NCBI GenBank assembly: GCA_025839675.1
Contig: CP104013.1
Location: 4,770,001-4,802,000, forward strand
Length of the DNA: 32,000 bases
Reading direction: 5' to 3'
Source: Candidatus Lokiarchaeum ossiferum
Lineage (GTDB): Archaea > Asgardarchaeota > Lokiarchaeia > Sigyniarchaeales > Promethearchaeaceae
Below, in pieces: positions 12,350-12,959 of the stretch. How positions within the stretch are numbered: position 1 is the stretch's first letter; every line of letters begins with the position of its first letter. The notes beneath the pieces were generated by a model. The model was given only the letters and a program-made list of their open reading frames with translations. It was not told where the DNA came from and made no database searches. The translations under genes were made by a program, and so were the position numbers.

Positions 12350-12361
12350 TTTTTTTTTTTT
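12350..12361 (+). terminator. Oligo-T (T12) tract after the SIR2-like gene, overlapping the stop codon of the convergent gene
   Basis: The T12 run starts 23 nt after the stop at 12327. Its 3' end forms the complement of the TAA stop of 12360..12959(-). Confidence 0.4.
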
Positions 12362-12959
12362 ACCGTGGAATTCCTTTTAAATTAAAATTCATACGATTCC
12401 AGAGCTTTTTACACCCCGAAAGTCCAAAAGATTGATAGTAGGAACCAAAAAACCCTTCAATAATACTCCCTTTGTCATGGGTGTTTAATTCATAGTTTGG
12501 ACGCTTTCTAACCGCAACGATCAAATCCATTTGATTAAAAATCTGAGCAAGGTATGCATTACTCACCAAATGATTTCGTTTTACAACGGCTTTTCGAGGG
12601 TTCTTATTTAATTGTTGTTCGCGAACTATCAAATCTAAAACCGCATCTCCGAGAAAATCTAATGGGCGATAATCCTCTGCATCGGGATCCAATTGATGGT
12701 AGGAGGGGTGGGTCAGAATGCGCGTGATTAGTGACTTTTCTAGTTTTGTTAAGTGCATAAGTTCCATTTTCTGTGTGAAACTTGATTGGTTACATATTTT
12801 TTCCTCTTCCTTTAGATTTAAGGGATAGTGTTGATTTTTACATGGTTCACAATGACCACAAAAGCATATTTGTTCCGCTTTCCCTTCTGCATTCTTGTGA
12901 TATCTAAGTAAATTGTCACATTCCGGACAATACTCGCAAGTAGGACTCGTTTCATTCAT
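12360..12959 (-). CDS. Rpb9/TFS-type zinc ribbon fused to an RNase III-like catalytic domain (no dsRBD; Mini-III-like size)
   Basis: 199 aa. The N-terminus TCEYCPECDNLLRYHKNAEGKAEQICFCGHCEPC resembles the Rpb9/TFS N-ribbon pattern fCxeCnNlLyp...C..C. The rest is collinear with RNase III: LITRILTHPSY (lL.qAlTHsSy), YRPLDFLGDAVLDLIV (signature ERLEFLGDAVL), LVSNAYLAQIFNQMDL, and GSIIEGFFGSYYQSFG (aDvfEAliGAiylD.G). Confidence 0.7.
   Translation of the reverse strand: MNETSPTCEYCPECDNLLRYHKNAEGKAEQICFCGHCEPCKNQHYPLNLKEEEKICNQSSFTQKMELMHLTKLEKSLITRILTHPSYHQLDPDAEDYRPLDFLGDAVLDLIVREQQLNKNPRKAVVKRNHLVSNAYLAQIFNQMDLIVAVRKRPNYELNTHDKGSIIEGFFGSYYQSFGLSGCKKLWNRMNFNLKGIPR

Follow-up and report, generated by a model that had tools for sequence, protein, structure and literature searches.

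A ribonuclease III domain joined to an N-terminal zinc ribbon in the Asgard archaeon Candidatus Lokiarchaeum ossiferum

Background

Ribonuclease (RNase) III was until recently called absent from archaea (review PMC8708148). Genes for RNase III with a domain that binds double-stranded RNA (dsRBD) have already been published from Asgard archaea as rnc flanking hrAgo1 (Bastiaanssen et al. 2024, Nat Commun 15:5499), and RNase III beside Asgard Argonautes has reopened the question of the origin of Dicer-type processing of double-stranded RNA (dsRNA). In this study, we analysed a stretch of 32,000 nucleotides (hereafter, the window; contig CP104013.1 of assembly GCA_025839675.1, positions 4,770,001 to 4,802,000) from Candidatus Lokiarchaeum ossiferum, in which one gene (12360..12959, minus strand) encodes an RNase III catalytic domain that carries an N-terminal zinc ribbon and no dsRBD (hereafter, the ribbon-RNase III protein). 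An initial annotation, made from the sequence alone, had presented this gene against the background that bona fide RNase III is missing from most archaea; the host is indeed an archaeon, of the Asgard group, but that background had overlooked both the published Asgard RNase III+dsRBD genes and the canonical Rnc of the same genome. What is new here is the dsRBD-less ribbon-RNase III architecture; the occurrence of RNase III in Asgard archaea was already known.

Among the described systems, Asgard Rnc has the closest RNase III domain (30-37% identity), both forms are encoded in the same genome, and a residue other than Asp at the position of Escherichia coli D114 is frequent in both. Rnc has a dsRBD, whereas the ribbon-RNase III protein has the N-terminal zinc ribbon instead, together with the changes E41 to D and E38 to R and a deletion of about 4-7 amino acids (aa), depending on the relative compared, that removes an 'EG' including E65 (E. 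coli numbering). Asgard Rnc is sometimes found beside asAgo and a helicase; the ribbon-RNase III gene, in contrast, has no Argonaute or helicase neighbours, but OsmC, gelsolin and TFIIB genes and, variably, a SIR2_2 gene. Mini-III (MrnC/YazC; PDB entries 4oun and 6tnn) likewise consists of one RNase III domain, lacks a dsRBD and has a reduced set of acidic residues. Unlike the ribbon-RNase III protein, it has no zinc ribbon, its second catalytic motif is preceded by a long insertion, and the two do not share recent common descent (see below). The N-terminal ribbon (N-ribbon) of Rpb9, C11 (RPC10), A12.2 and TFS (PF02150) resembles the present ribbon in its three-stranded fold, its first knuckle [FY]CPxCxNxL and the 17-18 residues between the knuckles, and differs from it in that the second knuckle here is CxC and no C-terminal TFIIS-type ribbon follows.

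The likeness to Rnt1p of Saccharomyces cerevisiae and Dcr1 of Schizosaccharomyces pombe is functional only: both combine RNase III with an extra N-terminal module and act at transcribing polymerases, Rnt1p having a co-transcriptional role. Dcr1 releases Pol II at replication-stress sites (PMC12624956). These enzymes have other accessory domains, Rnt1p also has a dsRBD, and association with a polymerase would be hypothetical for the ribbon-RNase III protein. Because the distribution of the latter is limited to Lokiarchaeum-like genomes, no ancestry to the eukaryotic RNase III enzymes is implied.

As argued in the following sections from alignments, structural models and analogy, we favour, with a probability of roughly 0.55, the reading that the protein is an Mg2+-dependent endonuclease for dsRNA that acts as a homodimer and descends from Asgard Rnc, and in which the lost dsRBD would be functionally replaced by a tethered ribbon used for targeting, most likely via a protein partner.

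Results and discussion

The RNase III catalytic domain

The gene is complete (199 aa and a stop codon, ATG start), and its product is laid out as zinc ribbon, linker and RNase III domain. When the sequence was checked again, the open reading frame (ORF), the motifs and the residue numbers of the initial annotation (D101, D105, S165 and E168) all proved exact; the motifs are YCPECDNLL (aa 10-18), LTHPSY (aa 82-87), LDFLGDAVLDL (aa 100-110), LVSNAYLAQIF (aa 131-141) and IIEGFFGSYY (aa 166-175). The RNase III catalytic domain (RIIID) occupies about aa 63-194 (12378..12773, minus strand). In the Pfam scan, both RNase III families reached their cutoffs (PF00636, 29.2 bits, cutoff 27; PF14622, 35.0 bits, cutoff 35), and no dsRBD family (dsrm) matched the 199-aa protein. 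In the alignment, it ends about 5 aa past the RNase III domain, where its relatives run on for about 110 aa. TIGR02191, the equivalog for full-length RNase III (canonical class 1), scored 42.3 bits against a cutoff of 166.25, so the protein falls outside this class. A phmmer search against PDB sequences matched Aquifex RNase III at E 1.5e-4. The AlphaFold model, computed with a 29-sequence alignment, had a predicted local distance difference test (pLDDT) score above 90 over aa 70-190, and the Foldseek comparison of this model with the PDB placed RNase III nuclease domains first (Campylobacter jejuni 3o2r_A, TMt 0.78, E 2e-5), followed by those of Aquifex, Mycobacterium tuberculosis and E. coli, Drosha and Dicer; nearly all of the 34 PDB matches at E<=1e-3 were RNase III, Dicer or Drosha. 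Since Pfam, the PDB sequence search, the AlphaFold model and Foldseek agree, the identification of the C-terminal 130 aa as a genuine RNase III domain is well beyond chance, and the initial annotation was correct in both its RNase III call and the absence of a dsRBD.

Relationship to Asgard Rnc

When 1.84 billion representatives were searched exhaustively with an HMMER profile, 777 RNase III matches were obtained, of which only the two family clusters matched over the full length. The next-best matches (E 1e-24 to 1e-11) were about 260 aa long, with the RNase III domain at the N-terminus and a dsRBD at the C-terminus. Those with a name were P0005 (89.5 bits) and P0010 from Promethearchaeota metagenome-assembled genomes (MAGs), P0011 (74.6 bits) from L. 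ossiferum and P0042 from Thorarchaeota; most of the other top matches carried no source name. P0011 is the canonical RNase III+dsRBD protein (Rnc) of L. ossiferum (WP_371801685); its gene lies at 3.21 Mb in the same genome, and the window protein is 37% identical to it over 124 aa (E 4e-25). The match to Bacillus subtilis Mini-III, in comparison, had a BLASTP E value of 0.005 with 29% identity over 45 aa. When the window protein and the most divergent family member were used as phmmer queries, Promethearchaeota Rnc ranked first and Mini-III last. Descent from the Asgard Rnc lineage is also supported by motifs common to the family and Asgard Rnc (THPSY..DP.AEDY, DK[AG][SN]xxE.FFG and CKK.W).

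In neighbour-joining trees, the ribbon-RNase III family was monophyletic in 56 of 58 bootstraps, and its sister group was unstable; for this reason, the ranking of scores and the common motifs were used instead of the tree. Some of the tree runs drew the family to short RNase III proteins of 150 aa (phmmer 36 bits, as against 89 bits), which we read as a long-branch artefact. Since the same genome encodes Rnc and Promethearchaeota Rnc is nearest by score, we read the ribbon-RNase III protein as a putative lineage-specific paralogue of Asgard (Promethearchaeota) Rnc, and not as a bacterial Mini-III transfer. A recent transfer of bacterial Mini-III with no Asgard conservation had been named in the initial annotation as a case that would overturn its view. 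A recent horizontal transfer of this kind, from bacterial Mini-III or from a phage RNase III and with no Asgard history, could draw on the lack of a dsRBD also in Mini-III and on a protein, P0051, that has a Cys-rich N-terminus and an RNase III domain on a virus-like contig; it is disfavoured, and we regard it as highly improbable, because Mini-III was the weakest relative tested, the best named matches were Promethearchaeota Rnc including the paralogue in the same genome, the gene has a GC content of 37% where the window has 35%, and synteny is kept in two species. In P0051, moreover, the Cys pattern is different and the active site is the canonical E/D/D/E.

P0051 itself (L085, 8001-8636; ENA ERZ16268161, scaffold_1180) has 211 aa, in which a canonical RNase III domain with no dsRBD is joined to a Cys/His-rich N-terminus of another kind, and its contig has many small ORFs (SprT-like, HARE-HTH and radical SAM) and looks viral or mobile. 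We considered it as a distant member of the family and rejected it for its Cys pattern, active site and virus-like contig; we take it as an apparently independent case of an RNase III that has a Cys-rich N-terminus and lacks a dsRBD. P0071, P0081, P0101, P0104, P0135 and P0128 consist of the RNase III domain only (about 150 aa), come from organisms of AT-rich-looking composition and are distinct from Mini-III; with A or S at the E41 position in some of them, they make up a further 'mini' group of RNase III. The locus of the canonical Rnc (L084, 8001-8816; L. ossiferum CP163304.1, about 3.22 Mb) has DUF6063, an HSDR_N-like gene, a leucine-rich repeat protein, a DDE transposase and several large unannotated ORFs as neighbours, with no Argonaute within 8 kb of the L. 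ossiferum Rnc, and may be a mobile or defence island.

The active site

The catalytic residues were assigned by alignment to Aquifex and E. coli RNase III. They lie in the signature motif R98-P-L-D101-F-L-G-D105-A-V-L-D-L (12630..12668, minus strand) and in the second catalytic motif H-D-K-G-S165-I-I-E168-G-F-F-G (12444..12479, minus strand). The phmmer alignment to the PDB sequence of the Aquifex enzyme pairs E40, D44, D107 and E110 with D101, D105, S165 and E168, respectively, as the initial annotation had proposed. The six acidic residues of E. coli RNase III (E38, E41, D45, E65, D114 and E117) are represented here by R98, D101, D105, a deletion, S165 and E168, and the full acidic set is thus not retained; the equivalents of E. 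coli F42 and G44 are kept (F102 and G104). All six positions are in the same states in P0004, the homologue with 52% identity, in which the whole second catalytic motif is also identical. D101, D105, S165 and E168 are shared by the window protein, P0001, P0002 and P0004, the second motif being missing from P0003; accordingly, all five family sequences have D105, and E168 is present in each of the four sequences that extend to this motif. Both residues, which correspond to the essential Asp and Glu (E. coli D45 and E117), are invariant across the 29-sequence alignment.

According to a motif scan of the best 150 profile matches, D at the position of E41 is found only in the ribbon-RNase III family. 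At the position of D114, N, S or G is common among Rnc-type relatives (N in the own-genome Rnc P0011, S in P0005). The E41 position is relaxed in other dsRBD-less short forms (A in Mini-III, A in P0071 and S in P0128). Mini-III has A/D/T/E at the four acidic positions (sequence verified against 4oun and 6tnn) and retains only the equivalents of D45 and E117; the initial annotation was therefore right to compare it with the D/D/S/E found here.

In a deep mutational scan of E. coli rnc, D114 was tolerant (D114G cleaves 48%, wild type 69%), E41, D45 and E117 tolerated no substitution, and E38 and E65 tolerated little (PMC10037077). The intolerant or little-tolerant positions that are altered in the present protein (D for E41, R for E38 and a deleted E65 segment) weigh against a fully active enzyme. 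Cleavage of dsRNA would, by analogy with Mini-III, be plausible; it is not assured because of these three changes.

The same changes are a ground for regarding the protein as a catalytically weakened or dead regulator, which would bind dsRNA or form heterodimers with Rnc (an asymmetric, nicking or inhibited dimer, or recruitment of Rnc via the ribbon). With S at the D114 position counted in, three of the six conserved acidic residues are gone, the fourth change places a D, specific to the family among the 150 matches scanned, at a position where E. coli tolerates nothing but E, and a canonical Rnc paralogue is present in the same genome as a potential partner. Yet the indispensable D105 and E168 are kept under an omega (ratio of nonsynonymous to synonymous substitution rates, dN/dS) of 0.05, as are G104 and F102, and Mini-III is active with even fewer acidic residues; we therefore consider a role as a regulator quite unlikely.

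The zinc ribbon

The N-terminal zinc ribbon (aa 8-40; 12840..12938, minus strand) is supported by the alignments, the AlphaFold strands, the Foldseek matches and its dN/dS. In the alignments, its ligands C11, C14, C32 and C34 (CxxC-x17-CxC) are invariant in all homologues. Of the CxxC...CxxC ribbon described in the initial annotation, the four-Cys ribbon and its first knuckle (C11/C14) hold, but the conserved second knuckle is C32-x-C34 and not C37xxC40. Some family members have additional cysteines (C8, C37, C40 and C56), none of which is present in P0004, and C37 is missing from P0003 as well; a second metal site formed by them would be speculation. In the full-length AlphaFold model, the ribbon has three short strands (aa 19-22, 28-31 and 37-39) with pLDDT 72-83, and a model of the ribbon only had pLDDT about 85 in the core.

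Three comparisons relate this ribbon to that of RNA polymerase subunits. First, PF02150 (Zn_ribbon_RPB9) was the top Pfam match of P0004, ahead of DUF1922, with E 4e-5 and 23.3 bits (below the cutoff of 25.2); P0004 was the only one among the four family members to match PF02150. Second, when the ribbon-only model was compared with the PDB by Foldseek, the top 7 matches were the N-ribbons of Rpb9, C11 and NRPD9, and the top 25 were mostly chain I of RNA polymerases (C11, NRPD9, Rpb9, RPC10 and A12.2), several of the matches being PDB entries with the N-terminal ribbon only. Up to rank 11, the matches belonged to this subunit family, together with African swine fever virus RNA polymerase chains, the subunit identity of which was not checked. 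The E values were 0.04-0.1 over ranks 1-6 and 0.04-0.26 through rank 11, and the root-mean-square deviation was about 1.1 A over 33-37 residues for most of the top matches (1.1-1.5 A in 6 of the top 7) with 22-30% identity and a Foldseek probability of 1.0. Third, hhalign of the family ribbon against verified N-ribbons of C11, RPC10 and Rpb9 gave a probability of 76% (P 2e-5), for the first knuckle only, and 1% against the C-terminal ribbons of the same proteins.

These three results are concordant and make it likely but not established that the ribbon is an N-ribbon of the Rpb9/TFS type. Several points weigh on the other side. The Pfam scan of the window protein found no ribbon family, including PF02150, for its own ribbon; the match to PF02150, a check proposed in the initial annotation, was obtained for P0004 only, under the cutoff, and all of the comparisons with Rpb9 remain below curated or conventional significance thresholds. 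Moreover, the second knuckle is CxC and not CxxC, and homologues differ in the net charge of their ribbons, which is -3 for the window protein and +4 for P0004. Thus, the Rpb9/TFS likeness suggested initially is retained at a sub-threshold level. A search of PDB sequences with the ribbon profile had no significant match (the MurT ribbon was at E 0.86 and RPA12 at E 2.5), and the ribbon alignment alone gave zero candidates in the word-indexed protein search, for which the query is too short. No TFS gene was found in the loci examined. The C-terminal TFIIS-type ribbon, which bears the acidic hairpin in cleavage-active members, is absent, and the linker and the RNase III domain stand in its place.

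Because the ribbon resembles the polymerase-anchoring ribbon of Rpb9, TFS and C11, RNA polymerase would be the leading candidate for a partner, by analogy. In Rpb9 and C11, the N-ribbon binds to the downstream jaw/lobe, and the RNA exit channel is far away. Docking at this site would be awkward for the cutting of nascent dsRNA, since it is remote from where the RNA emerges. In its strict form, in which the ribbon would be a bona fide TFS/Rpb9-type docking module that places the RNase III dimer on the archaeal RNA polymerase, this proposal is held to be unlikely.

A different use of the ribbon would make the protein a maturation enzyme like Mini-III, the ribbon, unrelated to RNA polymerase, binding RNA or a ribosomal or other ribonucleoprotein (RNP) component and the RNase III domain trimming a structured precursor, e.g. 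stems of pre-rRNA. The RNP would then provide the specificity, a part played by ribosomal protein L3 for Mini-III, the activity of which needs L3 (review PMC8708148). The minimal dsRBD-less architecture is the same in Mini-III, and the acidic set is similarly reduced. Zinc ribbons in general are modules that bind RNA or protein, and the basic ribbon of P0004 and the sub-threshold similarity to Rpb9 would also suit such a role. The ribbons of the Lokiarchaeum proteins are acidic, however (-3 and -2), the Foldseek ranking across the whole database prefers RNA polymerase subunit-9-type N-ribbons over ribosomal or other ribbons, and the very narrow distribution is unlike that of a core rRNA-maturation factor. 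We regard this explanation as possible, though rather doubtful.

Family size and distribution

A word-indexed search of 5.8 billion clusters yielded four relatives. One is 99% identical and comes from Ca. Lokiarchaeum ossiferum (6.27-Mb genome), where it is annotated as 'ribonuclease III domain-containing protein'; the other three are metagenomic, with 81%, 68% (truncated) and 52% identity. The exact window protein was also found on Logan assemblies, e.g. on a 135-kb contig of SRR22273278. In total, about 5 distinct sequences with the ribbon-RNase III architecture were found among roughly 15 billion proteins. In the GTDB species representatives, the scan for the ribbon motif gave 49 pattern matches and 0 confirmed relatives. 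The scan of GTDB for the RNase III motif gave at least 600 matches and is uninformative on the distribution in Asgard archaea; among the matches listed, nearly all were bacterial rnc loci, with one Methanobacterium MAG in addition. No member was found in JGI metagenome contigs, either with the protein-pattern scan or with a family-specific degenerate DNA pattern, and none in IMG/VR. The architecture, called unusual in the initial annotation, is thus extremely rare and apparently confined to Lokiarchaeum-like genomes, and a ribbon-bearing, dsRBD-less RNase III was not described in the literature searched.

Selection on the two domains and the linker

In comparison with the 81% orthologue, dN/dS was 0.10 overall, 0.10 in the ribbon and 0.05 in the RIIID. 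Between them, the flexible linker (about aa 41-62; 12774..12839, minus strand) is variable, aligns poorly among the family homologues and is predicted to be disordered (pLDDT <50 at aa 46-58); its dN/dS was about 2.9 over aa 46-62, a value from only 17 codons, and it appears to be unconstrained. Purifying selection on both sides of a free linker is the pattern expected for two functional domains on a flexible tether.

Proposed mode of action

According to the reading that we favour, a paralogue of Asgard Rnc would have kept the nuclease domain, lost the C-terminal dsRBD and gained an N-terminal four-Cys ribbon on a linker of about 20 aa. Two RNase III domains would pair as the usual homodimer, since the F102 'ball' and G104 are retained. 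D105 and E168, aided by D101 and S165, would bind Mg2+, and each of the two sites would cut one strand of the dsRNA; this chemistry is proposed on the analogy of Mini-III, in which the set A/D/T/E is functional. As the dsRBD is missing, the ribbon would supply both affinity and specificity, and most likely it would dock on a protein partner and not on dsRNA. Dependence on a partner for the selection of substrates is, again by analogy, a likely feature of both Mini-III and the ribbon-RNase III protein.

Lokiarchaeum keeps two differently equipped RNase III enzymes, the dsRBD form and the ribbon form. If the ribbon docks on RNA polymerase or another RNP, the protein would be a compact natural case in which a dsRNA nuclease is retargeted by a domain swap. 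If the partner is the polymerase, it would provide polymerase-coupled dsRNA cleavage in a prokaryote, e.g. for the surveillance of antisense or convergent transcripts or for nuclease-driven termination, and a functional analogue of the Rnt1p and Dcr1 events in the closest cultured relative of eukaryotes. As L. ossiferum is in culture, these hypotheses are open to experiment. What limits their significance is that the family is distributed so narrowly, at roughly the genus level; the gene arose recently within one lineage and did not give rise to the eukaryotic machinery.

Genomic context

The ribbon-RNase III gene forms a monocistronic unit; it diverges from the OsmC gene on one side and converges with the SIR2_2 gene on the other. 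The window contains no match to any Rfam family. The ribbon-RNase III gene belongs to the syntenic core: the run of genes for PEPCK, LysE, mu-homology protein, propeller protein, TFIIB, gelsolin, OsmC and RNase III is kept in the contig of the 81% orthologue (L001), which belongs to a second species.

The SIR2_2 gene (9577-12327, plus strand) encodes 916 aa with an N-terminal PF13289 domain, and its PADLOC matches were ThsA, PDC-S65 and the SIR2-APAZ/pAgo-associated SIR2. It adjoins the RNase III gene in the L. ossiferum assemblies (L086 and L087), and unrelated small genes replace it in L001. We considered it as a functional partner of the RNase III gene and rejected it, because it is missing from this syntenic contig; it looks like a variable defence-type insertion.

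The gelsolin-repeat protein (13589-14557, minus strand; PF00626, two repeats) has a C-terminal CxxC...CxxC ribbon (CPRCGN...YNCGKCGAVWR), the second knuckle of which is TFIIS-like, and its gene is kept in the orthologous contig. The TFIIB/TFB paralogue (14893-15753, plus strand) has two cyclin repeats and only the second ribbon knuckle (ECEYVCINCG) within the ORF, which has a TTG start, a stop codon about 26 codons upstream and no Pfam ribbon match at E<=1e-3. A cluster of eukaryote-signature-type genes lies at 15912-17579, 17716-20025, 23134-24249 and 30457-31215; its members are a BBS/FG-GAP-like beta-propeller protein, an adaptor-complex mu-homology (PF00928) protein, an Arf-family GTPase with a long N-terminal extension and a Gtr1/RagA-like GTPase. 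On the other side of the SIR2_2 gene, genes for a NosD/beta-helix protein (4880-5719) and a MarR-type winged helix-turn-helix protein (6097-7224) are inserted between genes that are adjacent in L001, and 4880-7224 is thus a second strain- or species-specific insertion.

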